A model generated the notes under the pieces. The model saw nothing but the letters and a program-made list of their open reading frames with translations. It was not told where the DNA came from and made no database searches. Made by a program: the position numbers and the translations under genes. Positions 259 to 46,328 of a DNA stretch of 46,328 nucleotides are shown here, one piece after another. Position 1 is the stretch's first letter; each line of letters begins with the position of its first letter. The stretch comes from Candidatus Nomurabacteria bacterium. GTDB lineage: Bacteria > Patescibacteriota > Minisyncoccia > Phycocordibacterales > UBA9973. Location: the NCBI GenBank assembly GCA_028286705.1, contig JAQBRC010000006.1:1-46328 (forward strand), given 5' to 3'.

Positions 259-294
259 TTTCCTATTTTCCCTAAAAACGCTATACTTGAGCAT

Positions 295-663
295 ATGAAA
301 AAAATACTAATTATCGAAGACGACACCTTTCTAAAGAACATTGAGGGTTCAAAGTTCACCAAGAGCGGGTTTGAGGTAGCTACAGCAATTACCAAGGCTG
401 ACATTACTCAGAATCTTGCAACCTCAACTCCTGACATTATCCTTTTGGACATGATGCTTCCTGACATTGACGGAGAGCAGGTATTGAAGAACCTTAAGGC
501 AGATGAGAAGACCAAGAACATTCCTGTTATCGTGTTCTCAAATCTTTCAAGTGACGGAGACATGAAGAAGATGATTGATGGCGGTGCAGCTGAATTCCTC
601 ATCAAGTCTAACTTCACTCTAGACGAAGTTGTTGAAAAGATTCACGCTCTCATTGGACAATAG
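295..663 (+). CDS. Single-domain response regulator (CheY-like receiver only)
   Basis: 122 aa with receiver hallmarks (ILIIEDD..., DIILLDMMLPDIDG, VIVFSNL). No output domain. Lies 37 nt downstream of the kinase fragment. Confidence 0.9.
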   Translation: MKKILIIEDDTFLKNIEGSKFTKSGFEVATAITKADITQNLATSTPDIILLDMMLPDIDGEQVLKNLKADEKTKNIPVIVFSNLSSDGDMKKMIDGGAAEFLIKSNFTLDEVVEKIHALIGQ

Positions 664-670
664 TTCAAAC

Positions 671-700
671 AAAAAAGACTCCCTTCTGGGAGTCTTTTTT
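671..700. terminator. Bidirectional rho-independent terminator between convergent genes
   Basis: Perfect hairpin aaaaaagactccc/ttct/gggagtctttttt, with an A-run on one side and a T-run on the other. Confidence 0.8.
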
Positions 701-702
701 GT

Positions 703-2595
703 TTATACCTTGAAGCTTTCTTGCAGGTATCCTTTCTTCACCGTTATCGGTTGTGGCGTCGCAACCTTGGTGTATGTTGCGTCTGCGTTCTTCTTATCAA
801 CCGTCACGCTGTATGTTCCGTTAGGAACAAGACAGTAGTAGTTGCCGAGACGGTCTGCAACCTTGTGGGTAATTTCCTGCCCTGTAGCAAGAGACAGTAC
901 ATGGATAATTGCAAATGGCAGTGGCTGCCCTGTAATGGCATCAGTGATAGAACCCTTGGCCTTGTATGCCGGACTATACTGACGAATAAGGAACATCACA
1001 AGGTATACCACAAACACAATGCTGTTATAGATATTGTTACGTGCAATCAATGAGATTGCCGCGATTGAGAAACCGAGACCAAAGAAGATTGTCGAAATAC
1101 GGGCGATAAGAACGTCAGTTTTCTTGTAGTATGAAAGACGCTTTTGTTCAGTCTTGGCAAACTCATTCCAGTCAAAGTTCAACTGGTCCATAGGAATGTT
1201 CTTGGTGATAACTTCTCCCTCTTCTTTAATGGTAATTACATCTCCGAGATAGAGAGCACCGTAGAGCTCATCTTCTGTCTTGTCGGCCAATTTCTTCGAG
1301 GGGAATTCAAAGTTAGTCTTGTTAGCAATGATTCGATACGTGCCTGGCGATACGTAGAATCCGTATCGTCCGTCGATGTCAGTGATTGAAGTAGCGACTT
1401 CGTTGCCATCAAGGTCAGTCAACATCACATATGCGGGATCAATTGGCTGCTTGGTTACACTATCATATACAGTTCCCCATGGATGGCGTCGCTTCTTGAA
1501 TCCGAAGATAACAAGGAGAAGGGTCCATAATCGAAGCGGCAGAAGAATAAGGTCAACGATGCTGATAGGGTTAGCCAATGCAACTACCGCTACGGTGCCA
1601 ACCAATGTCGCTCCCGCACTAACAGCTGTTGCAACCTGTGCTGTTTTTTCTCCTTCTGGACTACGAACAACATTCAATACCTTGGTTGCAGCAGGTGCCA
1701 ACGTTTTGCCAATATCAGTAATTACTTTTGTCGCAGTGCCCAATGCACCGACAATAGTGTTTGAAATTGTTCCAATAGACTCAAGAAACCCTGGGGGAAG
1801 CTGAAGACCTTTATCAAAAATTCCTGGTGTGGGAGTGTCGGTGGGGGTATCCGTAGGAGGAGTCGTAGGCTCCTGCATGTCACCAGGAAGATTGTTTGCT
1901 GGTGGCTGATCTGCTGGTGGAGTGGTAGGCGGAGTAGGTTGCGGTGGCGTTTCGGGCGGAGGAGTAGTGGGGTTCGGAGGAGGAGTAGTTGGAGTGCCGG
2001 GAGTACCCGGAGCACCTCCCGCACCCCCTCCACCTGAAGTACCACCGTTTGTATCCATTACCCAATTAGTGTGTACACAGGTAGCAGCACTGGCACAGTC
2101 AAAGACAATCCACCCATAGTTCTGACTCCAGGCATATCCAGCAGGACCAGAGGTACCTCCAAAGTTTCCGTTTGTACCAATCTTTACCGTTGAAATACTG
2201 CCATTAGTAAATGGGCCGAAGTTAATCCATCCGGTGTTTTCTCCCCAGGCATATCCTGAGAGTACTCCTGCATTGTTAGCGATCTTAAAATTTCCATTAG
2301 CGGCGGTGCAACCACTACTAGTATTTACACAGTTGGTAACAATATACCCAACTGAAGAACCCCATGCATACCCGCGCAACTCTGTATCAGATATTGTTAT
2401 GTTGTATTGAGACTGTGTAGTGAACTTACCAAAGTTAATGGACGTATCAGTCATCAAGCTAGAGTCCAAAAAGGCTGCTTTGTATTGACCCGTTCCCGCA
2501 GGATCAATGGTACCAGAAGCAGCGATAGCTGCAGTTGTTAGAGCTAAAGCTAGCGTAGCCCCAATAAAAATATTCTTTAGGGGAAAAGATTTCAT
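703..2595 (-). CDS. Large surface/membrane protein: signal peptide, three GYAW(G/S)-x3-GWI repeats, Pro/Thr-rich linker, TM segments, two carboxypeptidase-regulatory-like beta-sandwich domains
   Basis: 630-aa ORF. The N-terminus (MKSFPLKNIFIGATLALALTTAAIAAS) looks like a signal peptide. Repeats are RGYAWGSSVGYI, SGYAWGENTGWINF and AGYAWSQNYGWIVF. The PT-rich run is TPGTPTTPPPNPTTPPPETPPQPTPP. Hydrophobic helices follow. CarboxypepD_reg-like strings are DLDGNEVATSITDIDGRYGFYVSPGTYRI and ATGQEITHKVADRLGNYYCLVPNGTYSV. Confidence 0.8.
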   Translation of the reverse strand: MKSFPLKNIFIGATLALALTTAAIAASGTIDPAGTGQYKAAFLDSSLMTDTSINFGKFTTQSQYNITISDTELRGYAWGSSVGYIVTNCVNTSSGCTAANGNFKIANNAGVLSGYAWGENTGWINFGPFTNGSISTVKIGTNGNFGGTSGPAGYAWSQNYGWIVFDCASAATCVHTNWVMDTNGGTSGGGGAGGAPGTPGTPTTPPPNPTTPPPETPPQPTPPTTPPADQPPANNLPGDMQEPTTPPTDTPTDTPTPGIFDKGLQLPPGFLESIGTISNTIVGALGTATKVITDIGKTLAPAATKVLNVVRSPEGEKTAQVATAVSAGATLVGTVAVVALANPISIVDLILLPLRLWTLLLVIFGFKKRRHPWGTVYDSVTKQPIDPAYVMLTDLDGNEVATSITDIDGRYGFYVSPGTYRIIANKTNFEFPSKKLADKTEDELYGALYLGDVITIKEEGEVITKNIPMDQLNFDWNEFAKTEQKRLSYYKKTDVLIARISTIFFGLGFSIAAISLIARNNIYNSIVFVVYLVMFLIRQYSPAYKAKGSITDAITGQPLPFAIIHVLSLATGQEITHKVADRLGNYYCLVPNGTYSVTVDKKNADATYTKVATPQPITVKKGYLQESFKV

Positions 2596-2630
2596 TACCC
2601 AATTATAGTACGTTTTTTTATAAAGTAATA

Positions 2631-2678: not shown

Positions 2679-2918
2679 TTAATTAAAGTCTTTTCGTTCG
2701 TTTTCTTTAGGGGAATGAAGGTTGTCCATTTTCTCTTTCCATTCTTCAGCCTTTATATGCGTTCCATCAAAATCAGTTGTATACCATGCACCATCCCCGT
2801 CTTGAGTAAGGGGTCTATTGTAGATGTTATATAACGCTCTTGCATTGGCGACTACTTCTTCTTGGGAGAATTGAGGTACTTTTGGTGCTTCAGGAAATTG
2901 TATGTTTAATTGTTCCAT
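2679..2918 (-). CDS. Hypothetical small protein (79 aa)
   Basis: ORF bracketed by two hairpin terminators (2631-2660 and 2976-3005), so it looks like a monocistronic unit. No recognisable motif. Confidence 0.5.
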   Translation of the reverse strand: MEQLNIQFPEAPKVPQFSQEEVVANARALYNIYNRPLTQDGDGAWYTTDFDGTHIKAEEWKEKMDNLHSPKENERKDFN

Positions 2919-2975
2919 ATATCTATATGATAACAGAATATGGGGTTAGAAACCTAGAAATGCTTTAAGTATTTA

Positions 2976-3379: not shown

Positions 3380-4159
3380 TTACACAATGACCTTTTCGGT
3401 CGAAACATCCTTCTTCGTCGTCGTTAGGTATATGACAGTCCCCAATATTGCCATAAGGAAAAGGGCGCTTGTAACAACAGTTCCCAACCCCAGACCTCCG
3501 TCAATCTTGTCCTGTGACAGGAAGTCACCAATCGATGCTCCCAATGGGCGCGTAAGGATATAGGCTATCCAGAAAGAAAACACTGCATTCATTTTCATTT
3601 TCTTGTGGGCAAAGTATACGACCGCAATAGCTGCTGCAAACAATGCTGCGGATATAAAGTAGCCAACGTTGAGCGTTTCAGCGATAAGGTCGCCCGCTGC
3701 GGTTCCCAATGCAAAGGTAAACAGGATTGTCAGCCAGTAGAATGCTTCTCTGCTCTTGGTAAAAATCGAATGAATGGAAAGTGTCTTTTCCTTGGCATAC
3801 CAGATAAGAAACGTTATCGCCAGTGCGATAGAAAATACGATTGTCGTTGTTACCAATGAAATGCCAAGATTATCGGTAAGGTTATCCGTAATGAGCGTTC
3901 CAACAATACTGATCAGCACTACTGAAAGCCAGTATATGCTTGGAGTATATTTTTTTGACCGGAACTGAAATATAAGCGCAACAACAAGCAATACTCCCAT
4001 GACGAGACTGGTACCTGTTAGCCCTAGATTAAGATTAGTATTTAAAAAGTCAGCAGCTGTCTCCCCTACCGTTGTACAAAGGATCTTGATGATCCAAAAA
4101 TAAAGGGTTATCTCAGGGACTTTGTTCAGTAATTGCCTTCCGATATTTTTTGTATTCAT
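3380..4159 (-). CDS. Polytopic membrane protein with internal duplication (resembles the COG4705-type 'membrane-anchored protein' family)
   Basis: 259 aa with about 8 hydrophobic helices. The two halves share a motif (LYFWIIKILCTTVGETAADFL and FSFWIAYILTRPLGASIGDFL). Family assignment is from memory of that motif only. Confidence 0.7.
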   Translation of the reverse strand: MNTKNIGRQLLNKVPEITLYFWIIKILCTTVGETAADFLNTNLNLGLTGTSLVMGVLLVVALIFQFRSKKYTPSIYWLSVVLISIVGTLITDNLTDNLGISLVTTTIVFSIALAITFLIWYAKEKTLSIHSIFTKSREAFYWLTILFTFALGTAAGDLIAETLNVGYFISAALFAAAIAVVYFAHKKMKMNAVFSFWIAYILTRPLGASIGDFLSQDKIDGGLGLGTVVTSALFLMAILGTVIYLTTTKKDVSTEKVIV

Positions 4160-4207
4160 ATGCTAAAAGAATACAAATCATATATGAAGCCTTCATGAAG
4201 AAGCCTG

Positions 4208-4864
4208 TTAATAAGTGATTCCCGGTATGACGAAGAATCCGTACAGCACGGCATAAAAGTTAAGGAGCGAATGACTCAGAATAATAAGTGGCAAGCTAGG
4301 ATAACGATAGTACATAATCGCAAAACCGAGTCCCCCGACAAGCGCAACCGGCAGCCCTACCAACGGATTAGGAAAGATCGTATGGAGAAAGACAAACAAA
4401 GCAGTATTTAGCGCGATAATGAAAAGAGGGTTTTTGAACAGCCTTCCAAGGGCAGGCATAAGGTATCCCCTGTATATTATTTCCTGAAATACTGAGACAA
4501 CGAAGAATGTATACAGGAAGTGCTGATGGTTCCACCACGCACTGAGTTCCTCAACCTTCGTAATGCTTTCGCCAAACTGTGTGATGAGAAGGGTCATGAC
4601 AAGGGTGAAGATGGCGTAGGGCAAGAGGTATTTCTTGAAGGTAGACTTCTGAACACCGAGCATTCGCCAGCTCCACTTTTCCACAAAAAGTACTACAAGA
4701 AATACAACTACAATTATCGCCATCAGCAACACTCTCCTGTTTAAGGGGATAAATCCTAAGTGTACGAGAAGTATGGGGAGAATGAATACCAATAAAATCT
4801 GAAGGGTGATTTCCTTTCTTGTGTTTTTTATATTCTCAATCGAATATTTTAGATGTTCATTCAT
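4208..4864 (-). CDS. CPBP-family intramembrane metalloprotease (CAAX protease-like)
   Basis: Polytopic 218-aa protein with the family motifs (Q/E)ExxxR (FQEIIYRGYL), FxxxH (FVFLH) and HxxxN (HSLLN). Confidence 0.8.
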   Translation of the reverse strand: MNEHLKYSIENIKNTRKEITLQILLVFILPILLVHLGFIPLNRRVLLMAIIVVVFLVVLFVEKWSWRMLGVQKSTFKKYLLPYAIFTLVMTLLITQFGESITKVEELSAWWNHQHFLYTFFVVSVFQEIIYRGYLMPALGRLFKNPLFIIALNTALFVFLHTIFPNPLVGLPVALVGGLGFAIMYYRYPSLPLIILSHSLLNFYAVLYGFFVIPGITY

Positions 4865-4882
4865 TGTCCTAATGATATCATC

Positions 4883-6948: not shown

Positions 6949-7956
6949 TTACTGCTTTACAGGAAGCGTAACAACAACAATTGTTCCATTGCCAAGTTCG
7001 CTCTTTATATTAATCGTTCCGTGGTACTGCTCAACAATATCCTTGGTGAGAGCAAGTCCTAGCCCTGTTCCGCTACCGCTACGCGCGTTGTCTGCCTTAT
7101 AGAATCTTTTGAAAATATGTGGCAGATCCTTTTCGCTTATGCCGATACCGTTGTCTACTATGGTTACAAGCACGTCTTTGTAACTACGTTCTACCGAAAC
7201 AGTAACCAATCCCCCTTCACGAGTATAGGTAAGGGCGTTCGCAATGATGTTCTTGAATATTCTTCCTAGTGCCTGCTTCTCGCCATTAATAACAGCCTCC
7301 TTGGAAGCTAGCGATGCAGTAAAAGAAAGTTCTATTTTTTTCTGAACTGCTAAACCTTGCAATTGGCTTACCTGCTGCTGCACTATCGTACTTAGTATCA
7401 ATGGCCCTGCCTTTACAGACTTTCCTCTTGAAAGCTCTAAAAGATCGCTTGTCATTGTAGTGAGGTTATTTAGTTCTTCAAGATTACTCCTTAAGACATT
7501 TTTTACGTTTTCTGAGAGCATTTCCTTGCTTCTTAGAAGCACTTCAATTTCAGTCTTCATGACCGCCAATGGCGTACGGAGTTCGTGCGAAGCGTCTGCA
7601 CTAAAAGCCTCTTGTGCTTCGAGTGAACGCTTCACAGGTTTTAGTGTCACCCCTGCCAATATGTAGCTTCCAATTGACGCAAAAAGAAAGATAACGATAT
7701 CGATCGTAATAATCTGAAACTGGATATGGTCAACTGCCGCCTCGTATACCTGGTGACGAATGACTTGGTCAGCAGTCTCGACAAACTCATGTCGAACATT
7801 GTTAATCAAGGAAAAGTACATGGCAGCGCTATAAATTGCCAGCGTCAAAATAATGATCAGCAAGTATAATGCAGTCAGTTTGATACGCGTCCAAACAAAG
7901 ATGTTAGACCGTAAGGCGATAGCCCATTCCTCGAAGTGTTTCCAAGCTTTTTTCAT
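6949..7956 (-). CDS. Sensor histidine kinase
   Basis: Two N-terminal TM helices, H-box SHELRTPL, N-box NIIANALTY, G-boxes DNGIGI and GTGLGL. The ATG at 7956 overlaps the response-regulator gene by 53 nt, and no alternative start codon exists downstream in frame. Confidence 0.9.
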   Translation of the reverse strand: MKKAWKHFEEWAIALRSNIFVWTRIKLTALYLLIIILTLAIYSAAMYFSLINNVRHEFVETADQVIRHQVYEAAVDHIQFQIITIDIVIFLFASIGSYILAGVTLKPVKRSLEAQEAFSADASHELRTPLAVMKTEIEVLLRSKEMLSENVKNVLRSNLEELNNLTTMTSDLLELSRGKSVKAGPLILSTIVQQQVSQLQGLAVQKKIELSFTASLASKEAVINGEKQALGRIFKNIIANALTYTREGGLVTVSVERSYKDVLVTIVDNGIGISEKDLPHIFKRFYKADNARSGSGTGLGLALTKDIVEQYHGTINIKSELGNGTIVVVTLPVKQ

Positions 7957-8572
7957 AGTGTGATAATTTCTTTCTTAGGTTCTTAATGTGAACGTCGACG
8001 ACGTTGCTGAATGAATCAAATGAGTAGTCCCAGACATGGGCAAGTATCTGCTCTCGACTAATGACTTGGTTGGGGTGACGTAAAAGGTATTCCAGTATGC
8101 CGAATTCGCGCAAGGTTAGCAATAACGGAATGCCATCTACCGTTATAGCCTTTGTAGTCGTATTAAGCTCAAGGTTGTTTGCTCTTAGTATCAAGGGTGA
8201 AACTTCTTGAGGTCGCCGCAGTACGGCTCGAATGCGAGCCAGCAATTCTTCAAATGAAAACGGCTTGATGAGATAGTCATCGGCACCCGCATCCAGACCA
8301 GCGATCTTGTCCGAAACGGTGTCTTTCGCAGTCAGCATTATGATTGGAGTCATTATATTCCCCTCTCGCAGAGCTGAGCACACTGAAACTCCATCCTTGC
8401 CCGGAAGCATCACATCCAAGATCATTGCGTCATAATCCTGAGAACTCGCGATCATGCGACGTTCGGCCTCTTCTCCATTAAAGAGGACATCAACTGTATA
8501 ACCCTCCTGTTCGAGGCCCTTTTTTGTTGAAAGTGCCAGTTTTTCATTATCTTCTGTAAGAAGTATCTTCAT
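7904..8572 (-). CDS. OmpR/PhoB-family response regulator
   Basis: Receiver motifs (ILLTEDN, ILDVMLPGKDG, LTAKD) plus a C-terminal winged-helix region (LTLREFGILEYLL...GMGYRL). Confidence 0.92.
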   Translation of the reverse strand: MKILLTEDNEKLALSTKKGLEQEGYTVDVLFNGEEAERRMIASSQDYDAMILDVMLPGKDGVSVCSALREGNIMTPIIMLTAKDTVSDKIAGLDAGADDYLIKPFSFEELLARIRAVLRRPQEVSPLILRANNLELNTTTKAITVDGIPLLLTLREFGILEYLLRHPNQVISREQILAHVWDYSFDSFSNVVDVHIKNLRKKLSHYEKSLETLRGMGYRLTV

Positions 8573-8716
8573 ACCCTATTAACTATAGCATTTAGAATGA
8601 AGATATGATGAAGTACTCCTCTTCATGTAGACCTCATAATTGGATCGTATGTACTAGTGTATCCCAATGCAAAAGAATTGATTGGGGTACGCCCTACAAG
8701 CATAAATGAGTACCAT

Positions 8717-9022
8717 ATGAATAAAAAATACCTTATTGGCGCGACAGGATTGCTAGCAGTTGGAGCAATTAGCTCTATTGCAGTGCAATCATTCGCGCAA
8801 AGTACACCATCGCCATCTCAGGCAGTGGTTGCTCCCTCTAGCGTTGTTTCTAGTACTACCCAAGTAGATACTGAGACCAATGATGACGCTAGCATCTCTT
8901 CTACAGAACAGACAAATACTGTAGAAAAGGATACTGACGTTGAGGTTGCTGATGATGGAGGTACTGCCCTATCACCACACAGCATTGTCAGCGATGGTGC
9001 CGGTGAAAACCCAAACGATTAA
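8717..9022 (+). CDS. Small secreted acidic protein (hypothetical)
   Basis: From the ATG at 8717 the product begins MNKKYLIGATGLLAVGAISSIAVQSFAQS (signal-peptide-like). The track's longer form starts at a GTG at 8657. A hairpin terminator follows. Confidence 0.55.
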   Translation: MNKKYLIGATGLLAVGAISSIAVQSFAQSTPSPSQAVVAPSSVVSSTTQVDTETNDDASISSTEQTNTVEKDTDVEVADDGGTALSPHSIVSDGAGENPND

Positions 9023-9031
9023 GTTGCTACT

Positions 9032-9060
9032 ATAAGACGCCTTACGAGAAGGCGTCTTAT
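9032..9060 (+). terminator. Rho-independent terminator
   Basis: Hairpin ataagacgcctt/acga/gaaggcgtcttat followed by ttgtttc. Confidence 0.7.
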
Positions 9061-9100
9061 TTGTTTCTTCTTAGGAGATAGCGTACCAAGTACATTAATG

Positions 9101-37097: not shown

Positions 37098-38345
37098 ATG
37101 CGAAAGATTCTCATTATTACTTTGATTTCACTAGTACTCATTATCGGGGGAGTGTATTTCTTCTATTTCAGACCACGAGTGTTGAGTGGTCAACCTGTAC
37201 CAAATGTCCTCACATCATTTTTCCCGAAAGTAACTAGTTCCGGCAATTCTTTTGGAGCTGACGATACAGCAGTTAATCCTGACGGAACACCTGTAACTGC
37301 TACAGCATCTAAGCTTAAGCAGCTTACACCGCGCCCTATAGCGGGCTACACGGCCTTTGATATCTCAACTGCAGTATCTATACCTTCAATTGACCCTAAG
37401 GTAAAACCAACCGTAACAACAAAGACTGACTATTATGTTCGGTATGTTGGAAGAACGAATGGATATGTATATGAAATAAAGAACAACGAGATTCCGTTGC
37501 AGATCAGTAATATCCTTATACCCAATGTCTACGAAGCCTTCTTTGCAGACAGCAACAATACTGCGCTGTTGCGATTCCTTCGTCCGGATGGTCAAACGAT
37601 AGCAACATACAGTGTTCCTGTCCCTCCATTAAATCCAGACAATACACGAACACAGTTGTCTGGCGTATACCTTCCGGACAATATCTTTTCACTCGCTGTT
37701 TCTCCTGACCAGAAACAGATTGCTCGTATCACCGCTGATGACACAGGTACAACACTCAGTGCTTCAACAGCTGCGGGGAAGAACATTAAGGCGCTATACA
37801 AGTCTCCTTTTAATTCATGGATACCTCAATGGAATGCTTCTGGTATCTATCTTCAGACAAAGGCAGCAGCTAGTGCCAACGGATATGTGTATGCAGTTGA
37901 CCAGACTGCCGCACGCTTGAGAAGAATAGTTGGAAACGTGAATGGATTAACAACATCTGTTAGTCCATCAGGTGCATATGTGTTGTATTCTGAAAGTGCT
38001 AATTCATCCTTTGTTACCAAGGTATTTAATACCAAACTGGGTACAACAACAACGCTTAGCCTGAAGATACTGCCTGAAAAATGTACTTGGCTACAAAACG
38101 AAGATTTAATTTGTGCGGGAAATAACAGTGTTGATAACGGGGCGTATCCTGATGCATGGTATGCAGGTACAACACACTTTGTTGATGAGCTATACCGCAT
38201 AACTCCTAATACCAATACATACAGTGTTGTATTTAATGACGGTGCAAGATCATTTGATATGACTAACCTGCAGGTTGATGAAAGCCAGCAATATCTGTAC
38301 TTTGTTGATAAGAACACTGGCATACTCTGGAAATATTCATACTAA
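37098..38345 (+). CDS. Membrane-anchored protein with TolB/PD40-like beta-propeller repeats (last gene of the locus)
   Basis: N-terminal TM helix (ILIITLISLVLIIGGVYFFYF). Repeated strings resemble PD40 blades (LAVSPDQKQIARI, SVSPSGAYVLYSE, LRFLRPDGQTIATY). Confidence 0.6.
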   Translation: MRKILIITLISLVLIIGGVYFFYFRPRVLSGQPVPNVLTSFFPKVTSSGNSFGADDTAVNPDGTPVTATASKLKQLTPRPIAGYTAFDISTAVSIPSIDPKVKPTVTTKTDYYVRYVGRTNGYVYEIKNNEIPLQISNILIPNVYEAFFADSNNTALLRFLRPDGQTIATYSVPVPPLNPDNTRTQLSGVYLPDNIFSLAVSPDQKQIARITADDTGTTLSASTAAGKNIKALYKSPFNSWIPQWNASGIYLQTKAAASANGYVYAVDQTAARLRRIVGNVNGLTTSVSPSGAYVLYSESANSSFVTKVFNTKLGTTTTLSLKILPEKCTWLQNEDLICAGNNSVDNGAYPDAWYAGTTHFVDELYRITPNTNTYSVVFNDGARSFDMTNLQVDESQQYLYFVDKNTGILWKYSY

Positions 38346-38346
38346 T

Positions 38347-38377
38347 AAAAAGACCGAGACATAGTCTCGGTCTTTTT
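38347..38377. terminator. Strong bidirectional terminator closing the T4SS-like locus and yidC
   Basis: Hairpin aaaaagaccgagac/ata/gtctcggtcttttt between convergent genes. Confidence 0.85.
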
Positions 38378-38385
38378 ATTAGTAT

Positions 38386-39099
38386 CTATTGATTCATCTT
38401 GCTGCGAACTGTTCTTCGTAGGTATAGTTCCTGAAGGATAGAGAAGAGATTAGCAACAGTCCAATATAGAGATACGGCTGCAGCTAGGCGACTAGCAATG
38501 AAAATGATGATGATAGGGAGGATGTACTTAGTCTGCACTGACAAACTTTGTGCCAATTGATTCTGCATGTTCTTCTCTCCATTGCTAGGAGCAGTTGGAG
38601 CTGGTGCAAGAAACGCTTGGATGGCTTGAGTAACACCGGCAAGGATGGCGAGAGGGAGAAACGGCTTGGTGATATCAATAAGACCGAGGAATAGATTCTT
38701 TAGGTTTTCTGTTGAGAGGAAACTGTATAGGTGCTCAGGCTGGCTAATACCATGCGAGAAGACACTGTAGAGGGCCAAGAGGATAGGGAGCTGGATAAGG
38801 AGATACAGACATCCAGAGAAGGGGTTAATCTTCTCATCCTTGTACAGAGCCATAGTTGCCTGTGCTTCAGCTTCCTTTGTTAGTCCTTGAGACTTAATAG
38901 CCTGAAGCTTTGGCTCCAATGCCTTCATACGGTATTGTCCGACAATACTCTTCTTGCTGAGAGGGTATAGGGCAAGACGGATAATGATAGTTACAACAAC
39001 CACCGCCAAACCAACGTCTTGGAACGTTATGTGCTGAGCAATGAAGATAAGTGCGTTATAGATCGGCTGGTATATAAGTATGTTCCAAAGGTAAATCAT
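38386..39099 (-). CDS. yidC: Membrane protein insertase YidC (short form)
   Basis: 237 aa, polytopic, with YidC/Oxa1 core strings (YNALIFI, ALYPLSKKS, MKALEPKLQAIK, NPFSGCL.LLIQLPILLALY). Canonical position after rnpA-yidD. Confidence 0.9.
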   Translation of the reverse strand: MIYLWNILIYQPIYNALIFIAQHITFQDVGLAVVVVTIIIRLALYPLSKKSIVGQYRMKALEPKLQAIKSQGLTKEAEAQATMALYKDEKINPFSGCLYLLIQLPILLALYSVFSHGISQPEHLYSFLSTENLKNLFLGLIDITKPFLPLAILAGVTQAIQAFLAPAPTAPSNGEKNMQNQLAQSLSVQTKYILPIIIIFIASRLAAAVSLYWTVANLFSILQELYLRRTVRSKMNQ

Positions 39100-39118
39100 G
39101 ACTGTGATTATAGCATTA

Positions 39119-39358
39119 TTATGGCAGATCTACCTGTGGTTCATTGCCCGGATGACAGCGGCCGATTCTATTAGCTGATTTTCGCAGAGCGGTGAAAAAA
39201 GGGTACTTTTTAAAGACTTCTTGGGCATATTGAGAGCAGGTAGGGTAGAAAATACAGTGTGAACGGGTATAAAAGGGACTTATAAAGGTCCGATACAGCC
39301 AAATAACGCTTAAAGCTATGTAATTAGGTATTTTTTTGAGCTTTTTCAAGTAATGCAT
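39119..39358 (-). CDS. yidD: Membrane protein insertion efficiency factor YidD
   Basis: LYRTFISPF...CIFYPTCSQYAQEVFKKY...RIGRCHPG is the YidD signature. Overlaps the rnpA 3' end by 35 nt. Confidence 0.88.
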   Translation of the reverse strand: MHYLKKLKKIPNYIALSVIWLYRTFISPFYTRSHCIFYPTCSQYAQEVFKKYPFFTALRKSANRIGRCHPGNEPQVDLP

Positions 39359-39656
39359 TGAGGTTCTGCTGTAATTCGCTATATGTCATATCATATACCT
39401 GTTTTGAGACATATAATATAGCTTCTGCTGAAAAACCCTTATATTGCTTGAATAGGGTATATAACTGACGGCGTACTTTGTTGCGCAATACAGCTTTTTT
39501 CTGGTGTTTTGAGCCTGTAACGACGGTAAAACCGTTGTTTTCCAAGGAATTAGCGTATTTTAGGGTACCTACACGGTTAAAAACCACCTTTAAATCGTTA
39601 TTTAATAGGAGATTTGCAACTTGAGAACGAGAAAGCCGTGTGTGTGACGGCAGCAT
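39324..39656 (-). CDS. rnpA: Ribonuclease P protein component
   Basis: The product from the ATG at 39656 (MLPSHTRLSRSQV...AVLRNKVRRQLY) is RnpA-like, with an RNR-type motif. It starts 4 nt after the rpmH stop. The track's longer N-terminus overlaps rpmH. Confidence 0.85.
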   Translation of the reverse strand: MLPSHTRLSRSQVANLLLNNDLKVVFNRVGTLKYANSLENNGFTVVTGSKHQKKAVLRNKVRRQLYTLFKQYKGFSAEAILYVSKQVYDMTYSELQQNLNALLEKAQKNT

Positions 39657-39660: not shown

Positions 39661-39798
39661 CTAAACAGTTGAGAGCTGGGCGCGGCCCTTACGGCGACGA
39701 GCGAGCAATACTTTTCGGCCAGTAGCAGTAGCACTGCGGACTAGAAATCCGTGTGTTGTTGCTCGCTTCTTCTTTTTTGGCTGATATGTTTGAGACAT
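39661..39798 (-). CDS. rpmH: 50S ribosomal protein L34 (45 aa; too short for the ORF track)
   Basis: Manual translation of the minus strand gives [45 protein letters not shown], a clear L34 sequence. The 61-aa track ORF at 39689-39874 is a wrong-frame shadow. Confidence 0.92.
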
Positions 39799-39865
39799 AG
39801 AGTAGGTGCACTATACACAAAAATATTCTATTAATCAAGTAGTCTTTTTTCCCTCCGTTTCTGCT

Positions 39866-39895
39866 ATAATCCACTCAATCCACAGCTTATCCACT
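39866..39895 (+). promoter_or_regulatory. Three tandem DnaA-box-like 9-mers upstream of dnaA (oriC/dnaA-promoter region)
   Basis: TAATCCACT (39867-39875), CAATCCACA (39876-39884) and TTATCCACT (39887-39895), compared with the consensus TTATCCACA. -10-like boxes are TATAAT (39865-39870) and TATGAT (39921-39926). Confidence 0.65.
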
Positions 39896-39933
39896 TTTAT
39901 TAGATATTGGGAAAAGTCTGTATGATGTAATCA

Positions 39934-41292
39934 ATGGAAACCACTCTTACTCAACTTTGGGACACATGCCTTGGTGTGATTGAATCGCAGCTTACAAAAG
40001 CTACGTTTACTACTTGGTTTAAGAATACTGGTATCAACAAGGAAGAAGAAGGTATCATCTACATCAGCGTACCAAACGAATTCGTTCGCGAATGGCTAAT
40101 GACTAAATACAACAAGCTTATCCTTAAGGCCATTGTTGAACACGCTTCACACATTCGCGCTATTGAGTTTGTCATTAGTCGCCTTCCAGCACCTGCAGTC
40201 TCTCCAGACACTTCCTTGTTCGCTGTACCAGCTAATCAGCCATCTACACTTCCTCTGCAGAACGTCTATATTAACCGAGACGACAATTTAAACCCTCGCT
40301 ATACCTTTAACACCTTTATCGTTGGTCAGTTCAATGAGCTGGCGTATGCATCCGCACAGGGTGTGGTGAAGCGACTGCAAAATGCATACAACCCATTGTT
40401 TATTTATGGTGCAAGTGGATTAGGAAAGACACACCTTATCCAAGCCATTGGAAATGAAATCAAGAAATTGTATCCAGACAAGAAAGTCTTGTATACAAGT
40501 CTTGAAAAATTCATGAATGAATATGTTTCATCGGTGCAGAACAATCGCCAGCAGGCGTTTCAGGATAAATACTGCAAGTTTGATGTGTTAATCATGGATG
40601 ATATTCAGTTTATCTCTGGAAAAGAGGGAACACAGAACGCATTGTTCCATATCTTTAATGTTCTTTATGAGCAGAACAAGAATATTATCTTTTCATCTGA
40701 TAAGCACCCTAACCATATTATTGGTCTTGAGGATCGTCTAAAGACTCGTTTCAATGCAGGTATGACTATCGACATTCAAGAACCAGATCTTGAATCTCGT
40801 ATGGCTATTATTCAGGAAAAAGCACTATCTCAGGAATTCCCATTGGAACCAGAAGTACTTTCATATATTGCTTCTGTCATTACAGGCAGTATTCGTGAGA
40901 TAGAAGGGGTATTGAACCTTATAGCCATGCAGTCTGACATGAAGCAGAAGGCTATTAGTCTGACTGAAATCAAAGGATTGATTAAGAACAGTGTTAAACC
41001 AAAACGTGTTATTTCTATTGATTCAGTAGTTAAGATGGTTTCTGACTATTACAATCTCGATGAACAGGTTATATATGAAAAGACTCGCAGAAAAGAGATC
41101 GTACGTGCTCGTCAGATTATCATGTTCGTTCTTCGAGAAGACTTTAATGAGTCATATCCTTCTATTGGTGCAAAACTAGGAGGAAAGGATCATACAACGG
41201 TGATTCACTCCTATGAAAAGATTAAAGGAGAGCTTGTCAGTGACCCTCATCTGATGAAAGAGTTGGAAGATATTAGAATCCTTTTCAAATAG
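39934..41292 (+). CDS. dnaA: Chromosomal replication initiator protein DnaA
   Basis: Walker A is GASGLGKTHL, Walker B is LIMDDIQF, and the C-terminal DNA-binding signature is GGKDHTTVIHSYEKI. Confidence 0.95.
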   Translation: METTLTQLWDTCLGVIESQLTKATFTTWFKNTGINKEEEGIIYISVPNEFVREWLMTKYNKLILKAIVEHASHIRAIEFVISRLPAPAVSPDTSLFAVPANQPSTLPLQNVYINRDDNLNPRYTFNTFIVGQFNELAYASAQGVVKRLQNAYNPLFIYGASGLGKTHLIQAIGNEIKKLYPDKKVLYTSLEKFMNEYVSSVQNNRQQAFQDKYCKFDVLIMDDIQFISGKEGTQNALFHIFNVLYEQNKNIIFSSDKHPNHIIGLEDRLKTRFNAGMTIDIQEPDLESRMAIIQEKALSQEFPLEPEVLSYIASVITGSIREIEGVLNLIAMQSDMKQKAISLTEIKGLIKNSVKPKRVISIDSVVKMVSDYYNLDEQVIYEKTRRKEIVRARQIIMFVLREDFNESYPSIGAKLGGKDHTTVIHSYEKIKGELVSDPHLMKELEDIRILFK

Positions 41293-41382
41293 TTGGGGAT
41301 ACGTGGGGAAAACGATTGCATAACTCTATGAAAACTTTTAGCAAAAAATACAAACTCAAAAACTCTGCATATTCAGTATCCT

Positions 41383-41489
41383 CAATCCACAATGCCTCTG
41401 TCAAAAACCAATTGCAAATACACGCTCAATCGAACTTATCCACAATCCACACCCTATATACGAATACTTTAAAGAATAGATAAAAATTT
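41383..41489 (+). promoter_or_regulatory. oriC-like element: DnaA-box cluster plus AT-rich stretch in the dnaA-dnaN spacer
   Basis: CAATCCACA (41383-41391), a perfect TTATCCACA (41436-41444) and an overlapping CAATCCACA (41443-41451). These are followed by the AT-rich stretch ccctatatacgaatactttaaagaatagataaaaattt up to the dnaN ATG. Confidence 0.6.
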
Positions 41490-42587
41490 ATGAATATAAC
41501 ATGTACAACAGAAAAGTTGAAAAACGCAGTCAGTCTTGCAGAAAGAATGACAGGGAAGGCATTAACATTACCGACACTGCATGCAATCCTTTTGATTGCA
41601 TCAGGTAACTCAATTAAGATTCGCTCGACTAACCTTAACCTTGGTATTGAGATAGAAATTCCTGCAACTGTTGAAGAAGAAGGACAGGTATTGATTAAGG
41701 GAGAAATTCTGGCGAATGTCTGCAATCATCTTAGTGACGCTAGTGAAGTACGCCTCACACTTGATCACGATAATTTAACTATTCAAACACCTCAACACAC
41801 GACAGTTATCAAGTCATTGCCGGCTGATGATTTTCCAACACTCCCTATCGTAGAAGGGGAACAGATTGAGCTTAAGACTAGTGTGCTTCAGGAAGGTATA
41901 CGTTCCGTATACTTCTGTGCAGCTATAACAGATATTAAGCCTGAAATTGCTAGTATCTTTATGTACAGTGAAGGAAGTAACCTTTGTTTTGTAGCGACAG
42001 ACTCGTTTCGTCTAGCTGAAAAGAAAATTCAAGTTAAGGGCATTCCTGAAATTTCTAAGATTCTCATACCTTTCAAGAATATTGCTGACATTCTTCGAGT
42101 GCTCGATGCTGCCCCTGACACTATACGTATTACATACAGCCGCAATCAGATAGCCTTTTATGCCAACGGACTATATCTAACCTCTCGTTTGATTGATGGA
42201 GGTTTTCCCCCATATCAGCTTATTATCCCCAAAGAGACACTTACCAAAGTTGTTCTGTTAAAACAGGAACTGCTTAATACTCTTCGTCTCTCAACAATAT
42301 TTGCTGACAAGTTCTTCCAAGTGTCATTTGCCATTCCTGAGGATATGAAGAACATTACCCTTAGCTCAAAGAACAGTGACGTTGGCTCCTCAGTGTCGAT
42401 TGTAGATGCTGCAGTTGAAGGTGCGGCCATTGAGGTGGATTTCAACCTAAAGTACTTCCTTGATGTATTTCAGGCCCTTACAGGGGATAGTGTATCTATT
42501 TCCTTCACTCAACCTAACAAGCCTATTGTTGTTAAGAGTGTCAGTGACAATTCCTTCCTTTATCTACTGATGCCAACCAATCGCTAA
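41490..42587 (+). CDS. dnaN: DNA polymerase III beta subunit (sliding clamp)
   Basis: 365 aa in the canonical position after dnaA. Typical clamp strings (ATDSFRLAE, LIDGGFPPYQLIIP, YLLMP) are present. Confidence 0.93.
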   Translation: MNITCTTEKLKNAVSLAERMTGKALTLPTLHAILLIASGNSIKIRSTNLNLGIEIEIPATVEEEGQVLIKGEILANVCNHLSDASEVRLTLDHDNLTIQTPQHTTVIKSLPADDFPTLPIVEGEQIELKTSVLQEGIRSVYFCAAITDIKPEIASIFMYSEGSNLCFVATDSFRLAEKKIQVKGIPEISKILIPFKNIADILRVLDAAPDTIRITYSRNQIAFYANGLYLTSRLIDGGFPPYQLIIPKETLTKVVLLKQELLNTLRLSTIFADKFFQVSFAIPEDMKNITLSSKNSDVGSSVSIVDAAVEGAAIEVDFNLKYFLDVFQALTGDSVSISFTQPNKPIVVKSVSDNSFLYLLMPTNR

Positions 42588-42840: not shown

Positions 42841-42870
42841 AAAAGACCCCATATAGAGGGGTCTTTTTTT
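42839..42870. terminator. Bidirectional terminator
   Basis: Hairpin aaaaaagacccc/atataga/ggggtcttttttt between convergent genes. Confidence 0.8.
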
Positions 42871-42877
42871 ATGAGTA

Positions 42878-45394
42878 TTATGTTCCTTGAACGAATGTAA
42901 CTAACTTGTTAATAGTACTCTTTGCAAAGACACTATTAGTTGCATTGAATGTGATTGAATGCGAACCGGCTTTTAGTTTGTAATCATCAGGAGTGAAGAC
43001 AAAATGGAACGGGTCGGGAAGTGTAGCGATATAGCTGTTATCAATCAGGACATCAACTGATGTTAATGGATATTGTCCTGTAGTTGATACTGTTACTTCC
43101 GCATTATCTGCTAGATTCATTCTATCCGGCAATCCACTAAGCGTTAATGGTGATGCTGTTGTACCAGATGTTGTATCAGATCCTGCTGGTATGTCTGCTG
43201 TAGTGACATTGGGATAGTTGTGAGCATTAGCTGCCCACCATGTCTGCACTGACGGTTCCCAGAGACGGAACTGAGGATCGCTTGCAGGATTGCTTGGTAC
43301 TGGTCCTTTAGGGTCTGTTTTGTTAACCCAGTAGAGAATGTCATGAACGTCAGTGATAACCTTTTCGATGATTGCGTCCTGTGGGGTTGAGGCTGTTGCA
43401 CGCAATCCTGTCACTCTATCAATTTTAACTGTCTCATTGCCCATCCACACGCCTCTCAATATTGGTTTCAGTGTTGATTGGTCAACAGGCACCGGTTGTT
43501 CAAATGGAGTCTCTGGATACTTGGTTAATGCATATTGCATAAACTGTTTCCATGTCGGTCCGGAAATTGCAGAACCACCGCTTTTCATGGACTTATTGTC
43601 ATTGTTTCCAGACCATACACCCACTGAAATGTTTGGAGTATATCCAACAGTCCACGCGTCGCGGTCATTGTTGGTGGTACCAGTCTTCACCGCAACACCA
43701 GGGATGGTGATAAGTGTTGTGCCGAATGTTGGGATACGAGCAGTTGCATCAGCTAGGACATCGTCCATAGTCAGTGCAACATTTTTGTCCATAACCCCAG
43801 TTGGATTTGGCTGGTATTGTTCCAATATATTTCCTTCATGATCCTGCACTTCAAGAATACCTGTCGTTGGATTACGAATACCTGCATTGGCAAATACTCC
43901 ATATGCACTCGTCATATCGAGCAATTTCACCTCTCCTCCTCCGAGCACGAGTGACAGGCCGATTTCTTGAGGGTTGGTGAGTGTGGTGATACCTAGAGCG
44001 TGAGCGGTATCAACTGCAGACTGCACCCCAACAAGATAGAGCAATTTAACTGACGGCACGTTACGAGATTCAGCAATTGCTGAACGAAGTGATATAGGAC
44101 CCTTAAACTTGTTATCAAAGTTAGCAGGGTTGTAACAGTCCTTGGCTGTGTATCCAGGAAGAGGCTGTTGGTTGGCAGTACAGTTTGTTGAGAACTCTGT
44201 TGGCACGTCAAAGACAACAGTCTCGGGCGTATAGCCCTCTGCAAAACCAGTTGCATAGACGAATGGCTTGAATGCAGAACCTGGTTGACGCTGCGCTGTT
44301 GCAACGTTGTATGCGCCATCGATGTTCTTGTCGAAATAGTTACGAGAACCAACCATTGTCAGGATCTGTCCTGTTGCAGGATCGATTGCAACCAATGCAG
44401 AGTTCGATGCGGCATACTGCTTTTCATTTGCTGCTGCCTGCTTTGCAACGATTTCTTCTGCCTTCTGCTGAAGGTCATAATCCAATGTTGTCTTGATGGT
44501 ATATCCTCCGTTATCAAGTACGTCCTTTCCATACTTTTGCTCTAGCTGGTCGAGAATATAGAAGACAAAGTGAGGAGCTTTCACACCAGTATTTGAGGAT
44601 GGCTTGAACACAACCTCTTCTGCCTTTGCAGTGTCATATTGTTCCTGGGTGATATAGCCATACTGCTTCATCTTTGAAAGCACAAGGTTCTTTCTGTTAT
44701 CCAATTCTTTCTTGTGTGAGCCGAACGGAGAATAGTATGTTGGAGCTGGAAGCATAGCTGCGATGTATGCAGCTTGTGCAGTATCAAGCTGAGCAGAAGG
44801 AATACCAAAGTATGACTGAGATGCCTGTTCAACTCCATACACAGTTCCTCCTAGAGGAGCGTCATTCAGGTAGATTTCAAGAATCTGGTCCTTGCTGAAC
44901 TGACGAGTCAGGCGAATAGCCAATACCCATTCCTTGAGCTTACGAGTTACAGACTTGTCTCCATTAAGGAGCGTGTTCTTAACAATCTGCTGGGTGATAG
45001 TTGATCCTCCTTGTACGTAGCCAAGGTGAATGATGTTGGTGAAGATTGCGCGAAGAATAGAAGTTGGACGAATACCGCTATTGTTATAGAAGTCTTGGTC
45101 TTCAATTGAGATCACCGCCTTCTGGATAGGGTCACCCATACTAGCCAATGGAATCTGTGTTCTCTTCACTGACTTGTGCGCGTCATACAACACAATTTGT
45201 CCTGTACGGTCAGTTATTTTTGAAGAGTTAGCGACCTGACGTGCTTCGAATGTCGAGATGTCCGGGAGTTTGATAAAGCTTGCCCATACGAGGACTGCTC
45301 CAATGGCTAATAAACCTAGTGCAAGAACTCCAAGGAGGATTTTTTTCCAAGGAATTCTATTATGTTGTGTATGATCTTTCATACCATCCATCAT
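42878..45394 (-). CDS. Class A penicillin-binding protein (PBP1A-type glycosyltransferase/transpeptidase) with a C-terminal extension
   Basis: GT51 motifs are EDQDFYNNSGI, GGSTITQQ and RKLKEW. Transpeptidase motifs are SAFKP (SxxK), ESRN (SxN) and KTGTT. The N-terminal TM anchor is present. An alternative leaderless start exists at 45382 (Met5). Confidence 0.92.
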   Translation of the reverse strand: MMDGMKDHTQHNRIPWKKILLGVLALGLLAIGAVLVWASFIKLPDISTFEARQVANSSKITDRTGQIVLYDAHKSVKRTQIPLASMGDPIQKAVISIEDQDFYNNSGIRPTSILRAIFTNIIHLGYVQGGSTITQQIVKNTLLNGDKSVTRKLKEWVLAIRLTRQFSKDQILEIYLNDAPLGGTVYGVEQASQSYFGIPSAQLDTAQAAYIAAMLPAPTYYSPFGSHKKELDNRKNLVLSKMKQYGYITQEQYDTAKAEEVVFKPSSNTGVKAPHFVFYILDQLEQKYGKDVLDNGGYTIKTTLDYDLQQKAEEIVAKQAAANEKQYAASNSALVAIDPATGQILTMVGSRNYFDKNIDGAYNVATAQRQPGSAFKPFVYATGFAEGYTPETVVFDVPTEFSTNCTANQQPLPGYTAKDCYNPANFDNKFKGPISLRSAIAESRNVPSVKLLYLVGVQSAVDTAHALGITTLTNPQEIGLSLVLGGGEVKLLDMTSAYGVFANAGIRNPTTGILEVQDHEGNILEQYQPNPTGVMDKNVALTMDDVLADATARIPTFGTTLITIPGVAVKTGTTNNDRDAWTVGYTPNISVGVWSGNNDNKSMKSGGSAISGPTWKQFMQYALTKYPETPFEQPVPVDQSTLKPILRGVWMGNETVKIDRVTGLRATASTPQDAIIEKVITDVHDILYWVNKTDPKGPVPSNPASDPQFRLWEPSVQTWWAANAHNYPNVTTADIPAGSDTTSGTTASPLTLSGLPDRMNLADNAEVTVSTTGQYPLTSVDVLIDNSYIATLPDPFHFVFTPDDYKLKAGSHSITFNATNSVFAKSTINKLVTFVQGT

Positions 45395-45438
45395 AATAAA
45401 AATCCTTTAAAAAACAAAGGAAAATGGTACAATCTCGG

Positions 45439-46328
45439 AATGGACAACAATCTTGATAAAAATGAATTAACAGACATCTTGCTGCACAAGGGGGTGGCGG
45501 ATATTTTACCGAGCAAAGGATTTCTTGAAAAAGAACTAGCCTCAGGCAAAAAGCTTTCAGTTTATGCCGGATTTGATCCGACAGCTCCAACTCTTCATAT
45601 TGGGCACACTATTCAGTTACGCAAACTGCGTCATTTTCAAGACCTCGGACACAAGATTATTTTCCTTGTTGGCGACTTCACCGCTCGCGTTGGCGATCCA
45701 ACTGACAAGGGAACTGCCCGCAAGCAGCTCACCGAAAAGGAAATCAAGATAAACCTTAAAAAGTACAAGCAGCAGGCGGGAAAGTTTATTCGCTTTTCTG
45801 GCAAGAACGCTGCTGCAATTAAATTCAACAACGATTGGTTGGGTAAGATGAAGTTTGCCGATGTTCTTGCACTTGCATCAAACATGACTGTTGATCAGAT
45901 GCTGAAGCGTGATATGTTTGCTCGTCGTATCGAGGAAGAGAAGCCGATTTATATTCATGAATTCATGTATCCGTTGATGCAGGGGTATGACAGTGTGGCT
46001 ATGGATGTTGATGGGGAAGTTGGAGGCAACGATCAGCTGTTTAACATGCTGGCAGGACGAACACTCCTCAAGCAATTAAAAAACAAAGAGAAGTTTGTTA
46101 TTACCACCAAACTGCTTGAAGACAACAATGGCAAGAAGATGGGCAAGAGCGAAGGAAACATGGTTTCTCTTATCGACACTCCTGAAGACATGTATGGAAA
46201 GATCATGAGCTGGACTGACGGCCTTATCATTCCTGGCTTTGAACTCTGCACTGACTACACTCCTTCTCAAGTACAAGCTGTTCAGGAAGAATTACATGGC
46301 GAAGTTAACCCTCGCAACATCAAGATTC
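45439..46328 (+). CDS. tyrS: Tyrosine--tRNA ligase (5' portion; continues beyond the window)
   Basis: Manual translation gives MDNNLDKNELTDILLHKGVADILP...YAGFDPTAPTLHIGH (HIGH), FMYPLMQGYDS, GGNDQLFNM and KMGKSEGN (KMSKS). There is no stop before the window end, so the gene is absent from the ORF track. Confidence 0.85.

Follow-up and report, generated by a model that had tools for sequence, protein, structure and literature searches.

A 46.3-kb stretch of DNA from Candidatus Nomurabacteria bacterium (contig JAQBRC010000006.1; "the window" denotes this whole stretch) was analysed for a TAnnnT hexamer that recurs a few nucleotides (nt) upstream of its start codons. The window has a G+C content of 43% and carries about 47 credible protein genes and four tRNA genes. 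Its DnaA is 90-91% identical to proteins of metagenome-assembled genomes labelled Candidatus Paceibacterota or Nomurabacteria, which places the organism among the Parcubacteria within the candidate phyla radiation (CPR). The genes recognised by Pfam comprise dnaA, dnaN, rpmH-rnpA-yidD-yidC, rpsO, xth, uvrD, rsmA and tyrS, as well as those for a class A penicillin-binding protein (PBP), the CCA-adding enzyme and two-component systems. The region 22774-38345 is occupied by a cluster resembling a type IV secretion system (T4SS), in which PrgI, a VirB4/TraG-type ATPase and an NlpC/P60 protein were identified by Pfam; several large proteins of the cluster, some with a hydrophobic N-terminus, had no Pfam match.

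TAnnnT hexamers at fixed distances from start codons

The position of the hexamer, termed here the box, is expressed by the spacer, the number of nt between the box and the start codon, a spacer of 6 corresponding to a hexamer offset of -12. In the initial annotation of this DNA, 12 boxes on the plus strand and six on the minus strand had been listed, and all of them were found with the spacers and start codons given there. For tyrS the box itself was present, but its coordinate was one base off, TACAAT lying at 45428-45433 and the preceding TG at 45425-45426, with 45427 being the "g" between them. A systematic scan of the window added about ten further cases. Altogether, TAnnnT occurred at spacer 6-9 in 26 of the 47 curated starts, with two more at spacer 11, and a TGn extension preceded the hexamer in 13 of these 28 cases. 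When only independently initiated genes of the window were counted, the box at spacer 6-9 accompanied about three quarters of them (26/34).

Such a pattern might arise by chance from AT-rich intergenic DNA and start codons picked to suit the motif. The hexamer is degenerate, TGNTANNNT is present in 115 copies in the window, mostly away from gene starts, and some starts in the initial annotation had been selected via the motif. The curated starts are likewise partly motif-guided; all significance tests were performed on starts called blind to the motif or on annotated ones. With longest open reading frame (ORF) starts, 20 hexamers were found at spacer 6-9 in 44 genes, whereas 5.1 were expected from the rate at -45 to -21, and the fourfold excess thus persisted with motif-blind starts. 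Among the 33 genes with at least 15 nt of intergenic DNA, 17 had the box at spacer 6-9 as compared with 4.5±1.9 after shuffling, in which each intergenic spacer was shuffled with its AT-richness kept; the highest count in 2000 shuffles was 12 (z = 6.5 for the window and z = 12 for the relatives described below). Candidate starts within the first 30 codons carried the box more often than internal in-frame ATG/GTG codons of the window (17/85 vs 15/330; odds ratio (OR) 5.2, p = 2e-5).

The comparison with other genomes comprised the dnaA-centred loci of 14 related Paceibacteria (L001-L014), with four non-CPR loci (L015-L018) as controls in a scan of genome contigs. The related dnaA loci are partly syntenic with the window, hence not fully independent of it. 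An independent set of 80 metagenome contigs, collected via the CCA-adding enzyme (55-80% identity), represents a different genomic neighbourhood. In 283 genes of L001-L014, the hexamer was found 52 times at offset -12 and 25 times at -13 over a background of about 8 per position, and for the eleven closest loci (L001-L010 and L014) the comparison with internal ATG/GTG codons gave an OR of 10.3 (p = 1e-38). In the 80 contigs, 875 genes were scored and had 140 hexamers at offset -12, neighbouring offsets having about 35 each; the internal ATG/GTG control gave an OR of 6.7 (p = 1e-79; 929 genes). The spacer-6 peak extended across the 94 related loci and was found in every identity bin and every GC bin, while nothing comparable appeared in the non-CPR loci or in an E. 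coli control. Chance is refuted by the shuffle, blind-start and internal-ATG controls (p from 2e-5 to 1e-79 for the last), and the absence of such a peak from the E. coli and non-CPR controls also speaks against it. The enrichment over shuffled and internal-ATG controls that the initial annotation had proposed as its test was accordingly strong in the window, in the 14 related genomes and in the 80 independent contigs. For dnaA, yidC, the PBP gene, tyrS, the VirB4 gene and the gene starting at 35349, both the box and its distance were kept across genomes whose intergenic flanks have diverged.

Promoter character of the box and scarcity of Shine-Dalgarno motifs

For the sequence logo, hexamers were aligned on TAnnnT alone, the other positions being unselected. 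At these positions, T (0.60) and G (0.44) stood out at -15/-14 and A-richness at -9/-8, and the resulting consensus, TGnTA(T/C)A(A/C)T, is that of an extended -10 element. The TG dinucleotide occurred at -15/-14 in 45% of spacer-6 cases, in comparison with about 5% by base composition. The motif was not confined to protein genes, as 63 of 208 tRNA genes had TGNTANNNT in their upstream DNA, where shuffles gave 20.7±4.1. The distance between motif and tRNA varied from 8 to 25 nt, whereas that to ORFs is fixed, which is expected if selection favours a transcription start on the initiation codon. Boxes of the -35 type were identified at 17 nt for rpmH, tRNA-Arg, tRNA-Pro and the gene starting at 11631; TATAGT about 11 nt before the ATG was kept in most rpmH orthologs, and so was the -35-like TTGATT. 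Two-hexamer matches to the -35 consensus were not enriched (49 vs 42.7 expected and 25 vs 37.8), nor was any -35 signal visible in the logo; a -35 box is therefore not a general feature.

The extended -10 logo, the occurrence at tRNA genes, the -35 boxes and the distribution over gene junctions support the identification of the box as a sigma-70 extended -10 promoter element and not as a ribosome-binding site (RBS). That the motif acts in RNA, as a lineage-specific non-SD (Shine-Dalgarno) RBS or an AU-rich enhancer UAnnnU on leadered or polycistronic mRNAs, comparable to the "group B" of GeneMarkS-2, appears very improbable. It would suit this idea that 71% of the same-strand gaps of 12-59 nt hold a box, as no terminator fits into them and read-through is expected, that some SD-independent leadered initiation is required in the lineage, as at dnaN, and that a changed anti-SD at the 16S rRNA 3' end is conceivable. 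However, the motif coincides with the extended -10 consensus, its TG occupying precisely -15/-14, it precedes untranslated tRNA genes, several of its copies have a -35 box 17 nt away, and it is missing from genes less than 12 nt past a stop codon, where an RBS would be needed most. Moreover, its peak at exactly 6 nt equals the distance from a -10 element to the transcription start and is sharper than typical RBS spacing.

SD motifs were scored as GGAG, GAGG or AGGA at -20 to -4 of the start. Such 4-mers were found at one of the 47 curated starts of the window and at three of 44 naive longest-ORF starts, while among the annotated starts of control regions the share was 23/41 for E. coli K-12 and 17/41 for D. 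radiodurans MP1. The near-absence of GGAGG-like motifs, remarked upon in the initial annotation, is thus borne out. In the pooled relatives, GGAG and GAGG were present upstream of starts 9 and 8 times, respectively (16.5 and 15.9 expected), and neither was found in coupled genes, the start of which lies right after another gene. The logo also showed G to be depleted at -13 to -4.

Gene packing and the proposed leaderless expression

The box proved informative for start-codon assignment. For xth, rpsO, NYN, UvrD, RsmA, L34 and the response regulators, the Pfam profile sets in between residues 1 and 10 of the short form, and ortholog alignments begin at the methionines implied by the box, including Met5 of the PBP. 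The long form of VirB4 starting at TTG 32463, the only start with GGAGG nearby, has no counterpart in relatives and is spurious. In the window, taking the longest ORF gives a wrong start for xth, rpsO, NYN, VirB4, PBP and tyrS. For xth, rpsO and NYN the initial annotation had chosen the starts by the same pattern, and the Pfam boundaries and ortholog N-termini agree with its choice, as they do for PBP (Met5) and VirB4. Gene starts in CPR genomes can be corrected by a simple rule based on the box.

Occurrence of the box depended on the distance between genes. In same-strand gaps of 12-59 nt it was present in 53 of 75 cases, as opposed to 2 of 75 at control offsets, whereas in gaps shorter than 12 nt, mostly of 1-3 nt, it reached 8 of 94, the background level of the control offsets. 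Gaps of 1, 2 and 3 nt dominated among the pooled coupled junctions, and nine junctions of the window had gaps of -4 to +6 nt. Genes lacking a box mostly begin 1-6 nt past the stop codon of the gene upstream or overlap it by 4 nt. This arrangement suggests translational coupling, and such genes are probably translated by termination-reinitiation. Orthologs of prgI and of the gene at 42589 are coupled in some genomes and have their own box in others, so that the two modes interchange in evolution. Almost every gene of the T4SS-like cluster has either its own box or coupling, and this layout is kept across relatives. Two same-strand overlaps, of 53 nt between a response regulator and a histidine kinase gene (7904-7956) and of 35 nt between rnpA and yidD (39324-39358), have neither a box nor an SD.

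The packing of promoters was tight. In three modules composed of a terminator, a -10 element and an ATG (NYN, xth and ATG 2595), the hairpin is separated from the start codon by 22-38 nt, both boxes of the divergent PBP and tyrS genes are accommodated between start codons 57 nt apart, and the 12-nt gap before 37098 has room for just the hexamer and six more nt. These boxes could be real but minor promoters, with long polycistronic transcripts dominating, internal starts being SD-independent and leaderless mRNAs arising as a by-product. Tightly packed same-strand arrays with few terminators, such as 22774-38345, and the polycistronic translation evident from coupled junctions are in keeping with this possibility. 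It is nonetheless unlikely, given that the box and its spacing are conserved across genomes with diverged flanks, that gaps are trimmed to the box-holding minimum (12 nt at 37098) and that the terminator/-10/ATG modules form stand-alone units.

In the reading preferred here, the hexamers are, with good likelihood, -10 elements placed so as to produce leaderless or near-leaderless mRNAs translated without an SD. They would belong to sigma-70-type promoters, mostly of the extended -10 kind, in which the -35 box is usually dispensable. With a -10 hexamer 6-7 nt before the ATG, transcription is expected to start on the A of the ATG according to established promoter geometry and to the description of the GeneMarkS-2 "group C" (PMC6028130). 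RNA polymerase would thus begin on the A/G of the start codon or 1-3 nt before it, and the 5'-terminal AUG or GUG of the resulting mRNA would be recognised directly, without SD pairing. By this account, leaders would be absent or 1-3 nt long in about 26 of the 34 independently initiated genes, and 4-5 nt long in rpmH and prgI (spacer 11). Nine to eleven further genes would be coupled to an upstream gene, two would follow tRNAs and about six, dnaN included, would lack both a nearby box and an SD. The leaderless architecture suggested in the initial annotation is in this way supported by the enrichment, the extended -10 identity and the spacing, from which the 5' ends and the mode of translation are inferred.

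Genes located behind tRNAs were compared for tRNA-Pro(tgg) in all loci with a long ORF at most 80 nt downstream (the window, L019, L038, L052, L058, L067 and L091). In 7 of 7 loci the ATG followed the discriminator by exactly 4 nt (3 nt after the ARAGORN end), in the arrangement A-C-N-N-T-ATG. The ORFs have no box of their own and fall into at least six unrelated families, including ZIP-like, peroxiredoxin-like, kinase-like and transglycosylase-like proteins and unknowns. Since 3' processing of the tRNA-Pro would leave a 4-nt leader, the product would be a near-leaderless mRNA, and the gene at ATG 10405 probably acquires its leader in this manner from the co-transcribed tRNA, as judged from the arrangement of the DNA. 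The promoter of tRNA-Arg(tcg) (region 11663-11773, plus strand; counterparts at L013 5422 and L020 268) stops 8 nt short of the mature 5' end, which predicts a tRNA leader of 0-1 nt despite the presence of rnpA (39324-39656). None of the four tRNA genes of the window encodes CCA, and the gene for the CCA-adding enzyme starts 15 nt after tRNA-Arg.

More tentatively, and with doubt somewhat outweighing confidence, a whole clade within the Paceibacteria may have abandoned SD initiation entirely, nearly all of its genes being expressed via a leaderless transcript of their own (from extended -10 promoters in spacers of 12-30 nt), by reinitiation at 1-6 nt past a stop codon or from a tRNA-processed 5' end (tRNA-Pro plus 4 nt). 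The pattern suggests that most genes in these minimal genomes form their own transcription unit, which matters for the inference of operons and regulation from metagenomes.

Several points weigh against the leaderless reading. The positions of the transcription starts are predictions from promoter geometry. Some individual matches are weak (TAAAGT, TATTCT, TATCGT and TAAATT), TAnnnT is short and the intergenic DNA AT-rich. Spacers of 8-11 nt in 10 of the 28 cases would give leaders of 1-5 nt, not strictly zero. A pyrimidine at -1, considered as a mark of the transcription start, did not discriminate, being present in 83% of box-bearing and 77% of coupled genes. Because many boxes lie in same-strand gaps of 12-30 nt without a terminator, read-through polycistronic RNA with internal AUGs must also exist. 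In L011-L013, the DnaA of which is 43-50% identical, the signal at spacer 6-9 was weak, with spacers often of 10-19 nt; it was not significant by shuffles (7/31 vs 4.5) and became visible in comparison with internal ATGs. At dnaN and about five other genes the start is accompanied by neither a nearby box nor an SD, so another, leadered and SD-independent mechanism must operate as well. The clearest leadered exception is dnaN itself (41293-41489; L001-L014), where a conserved ATCCACAcCCTATATAG combining a DnaA-box-like and a -10-like sequence is located about 30 nt upstream. Finally, no rRNA gene was found with universal 16S/23S site patterns in the window or in the 98 fetched loci, and a loss of the anti-SD in this genome is therefore presumptive. 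A single weak match to the 16S/23S patterns, in L085, proved to contain only tRNAs.

The features on which these considerations are based are collected in the table below.

Boxes, promoters and junctions in the window. Numbers between hyphens are spacers in nt; "added" marks cases beyond those of the initial annotation; aa, amino acids.
Element	Coordinates	Strand	Gene and remarks
TATACT-7-ATG	282-297	+	Response regulator (295-663); Pfam Response_reg from residue 4
TATAAT-6-ATG	2593-2607	-	ATG 2595, 630-aa surface protein; preceded by terminator 2634-2658 (hairpin -19.3 kcal/mol, z -6.3)
TGtTATCAT-8-ATG	2916-2935	-	ATG 2918, 79-aa ORF; added
TATTCT-8-ATG	4157-4173	-	ATG 4159, DUF347 membrane protein; weak match; added
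TGaTATCAT-7-ATG	4862-4880	-	CAAX/Rce1-like protease; inside 18-nt same-strand gap
TGcTATAGT-9-ATG	8570-8590	-	OmpR-type response regulator; Pfam domain from residue 3
tRNA-Pro(tgg), discriminator A, CAAT, then ATG 10405	10403-10482	-	263-aa ORF without own -10 box
tRNA-Pro promoter TTGAAA-17-TACTAT	10515-10543	-	About 32 nt before tRNA 5' end; orthologous TTGTAA-17-TAATAT in relatives
TTGTAA-17-TATACT-9-ATG	11629-11669	-	Full two-box promoter 9 nt before ATG 11631; added
tRNA-Arg promoter TTTACA-17-TGaTACAGT	11663-11699	+	8 nt before mature 5' end (11700); same 8 nt in L013, L020
TAAAGT-7-ATG	13332-13347	+	167-aa protein; weak match
Terminator 14901-14926, then TGcTATACT-6-ATG 14878	14876-14926	-	xth; Pfam Exo_endo_phos profile from residue 4 of short form
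TACTAT-8 / TATACT-10-ATG	16114-16132	-	ATG 16116, XerC/D-like recombinase; added
TGgTATGAT-9-ATG	16191-16211	+	rpsO (S15, 86 aa); Pfam S15 profile position 1 aligns with residue 7
rpsO terminator 16478-16499 (9-bp stem, UUCG loop, z -3.4), TATACT 16513-16518, -6-ATG 16525	16478-16527	+	NYN
TGcTAGTAT-7-ATG	18019-18037	+	DksA/TraR-type zinc-finger protein
TATCGT-8-ATG	19764-19780	-	ATG 19766, LysM/M23 peptidase; weak; alternative TGgTATGAT 14 nt upstream; added
TGtTACACT-6-ATG	19971-19988	+	UvrD/PcrA helicase; Pfam domain from residue 7
TATACT-6-ATG 22774	22762-22776	+	First gene of T4SS-like cluster
TAAATT-8-ATG 23160			Weak match; added
Coupled junction TAA-c-ATG	24048-24054	+	Example
TGaTACAAT-6-GTG	27283-27300	+	1177-aa membrane protein
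TGcTATACT-11-ATG 31464	31444-31466	+	PrgI-like protein; expected leader 4-5 nt; orthologs in L008, L009, L011 at spacer 6; added
TATACT-6-ATG 32547	32535-32549	+	VirB4/TraG-like ATPase; added
TGcTATACT-6-GTG	34347-34364	+	321-aa protein; orthologs in L001, L002 likewise GTG at spacer 6
TGaTAAACT-6-ATG 35349	35334-35351	+	NlpC/P60 protein; added
TACAAT-6-ATG 37098	37086-37100	+	In 12-nt gap, smallest able to hold box and spacer
TGcTATAAT-7-ATG	39097-39115	-	yidC; TA(T/C)AAT at 6-7 nt in 11/13 orthologs found
TTGATT-17-TATAGT-11-ATG 39798	39796-39838	-	rpmH; canonical two-box promoter; expected leader 4-5 nt; added
TATGAT-7-ATG	39921-39936	+	dnaA; cTGTATGAT-7-ATG kept in L001-L007 and L014 while flanks diverge
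dnaN exception	41293-41492	+	197-nt upstream region; conserved CTATATAG about 30 nt before ATG; A-rich leader; no SD
TATGAT-7-ATG 45382	45380-45395	-	Class A PBP, Met5 of longest ORF
TGgTACAAT-6-ATG	45425-45442	+	tyrS; start codon 57 nt from divergent PBP start codon
Other coupled junctions (1-6-nt gap or 4-nt overlap)	5659, 6403, 17040, 26245, 30834, 31886, 39656 (rnpA), 42589		

Other features of the window and relation to known systems

The -10 box of the prgI-like gene lies inside a perfect palindrome, CTGCTATACTTGTAGCAG (31443-31460), for which an operator or an RNA hairpin is possible. The rpmH gene (L34, 45 aa, 39661-39798, minus strand) is shorter than usual ORF length cut-offs. The ORFs 39689-39874 (61 aa, overlapping rpmH), 10749-10973, 13849-14052 and 18419-18637 are probably not genes. 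A 285-nt gene-free stretch at 14927-15210 on the minus strand has its own promoter, TTTGCA-17-TATACT (15193-15165), and ends at the terminator 14901-14926. It folds far better than shuffled sequences (z -6.2), with a 15-bp hairpin at the 5' side, matched no Rfam family and showed no similarity to the 98 other loci; it may represent a small RNA of no known family. Between the convergent genes 37098-38345 (plus) and yidC (minus), a 20-bp perfect hairpin at 38339-38385 looks like a bidirectional terminator.

The cumulative GC skew had its minimum near 11-12 kb, where gene orientation also flips from minus on the left to plus on the right. This switch is about 28 kb from dnaA (regions of about 8600-11700 and 39874-41490), and the replication origin may not be adjacent to dnaA. 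Perfect DnaA boxes are present at 10737 and 41436, with near-perfect ones directly upstream of dnaA. Clustering of DnaA boxes was a weak origin marker (19 matches vs 12.9 expected).

On the ribosomal side, Tsurumaki et al. 2022 (RNA 28:1041; PMC9297842) reported about half of Parcubacteria to lack CCTCCT at the end of the 16S (3' side), concluding that SD helices do not form there; leaderless mRNAs or an alternative initiation signal were not mentioned. The window comes from the same broad lineage, and its SD-free upstream regions fit the anti-SD loss of that subgroup. The 16S side was described there and the mRNA side is described here. Leaderless expression would explain how translation starts in Parcubacteria lacking the anti-SD, for which the 2022 survey gave no alternative signal. 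A full-text literature search on CPR, Patescibacteria, Parcubacteria and Saccharibacteria returned no account of leaderless expression, in line with the impression in the initial annotation that this architecture is not established for the lineage. The case is apparently one of a known mode of expression in a lineage where it has been undescribed.

Among bacteria, the closest counterpart is the GeneMarkS-2 "group C" (Actinobacteria and Deinococcus-Thermus), the leaderless genomes of which are recognised by a Pribnow box 6-8 nt before the start (PMC6028130). In leaderless-rich bacteria, of which mycobacteria are the best-studied case (PMC4633059), ATG or GTG is located at the predicted +1, and this pattern corrects mis-annotated starts (PMC6028130, PMC4633059). 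As the mark of group C, a -10 box about 6-8 nt upstream of the start in more than 25% of first-in-unit genes was taken. As in Mycobacterium, Streptomyces, Corynebacterium and Deinococcus, a box lies close upstream of many starts in the window (26/47 at spacer 6-9). In contrast to those genomes, which keep an SD for leadered and operon-internal genes, SD motifs are here at or below chance, the 4-mers accompanying 1 of 47 starts. The box was also more frequent, at 55% of curated starts as compared with 15% in the D. radiodurans MP1 control region. Further differences are the extended -10 (TGn) promoters squeezed into same-strand gaps of 12-30 nt and the tiny, AT-rich CPR genome.

Bacteroidota ("group B") make no use of the SD and have A-rich leaders, with a motif also before operon-internal genes. 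They share with the window an SD-independent bacterial initiation, and the dnaN leader of the window is A-rich like theirs. Their mRNAs are leadered, however, while here the motif matches the promoter consensus and is absent from tightly coupled genes; a motif at all genes, tightly packed internal ones included, is the mark of group B, and at gaps below 12 nt the frequency was that of the control offsets (8/94).

In Haloarchaea and Sulfolobus (GeneMarkS-2 "group D"), most transcripts are leaderless and internal genes need no SD. For gene pairs that overlap or lie close together, Huber et al. reportedly described termination-reinitiation in 2019. The likeness to the window would consist in a leaderless majority, SD-free internal genes and reinitiation at close pairs, and the difference lies in the archaeal TATA box about 26 nt upstream and another transcription machinery. 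The arrangement behind tRNA-Pro resembles the tRNA punctuation of mammalian mitochondria in that an ORF stands at a fixed 4 nt after the discriminator in front of unrelated genes, where cleavage would release it. Unlike mitochondrial punctuation, it involves a single tRNA species, the distances from tRNA-Arg and tRNA-Gly to the ORF being variable (2-22 nt). If the broader reading of a clade without SD initiation is true, a bacterium would have a regime like that of archaea or mitochondria, with the mRNA-side explanation so far missing for the reported anti-SD loss. Leaderless initiation, elsewhere exceptional, would be the norm in this bacterial system.

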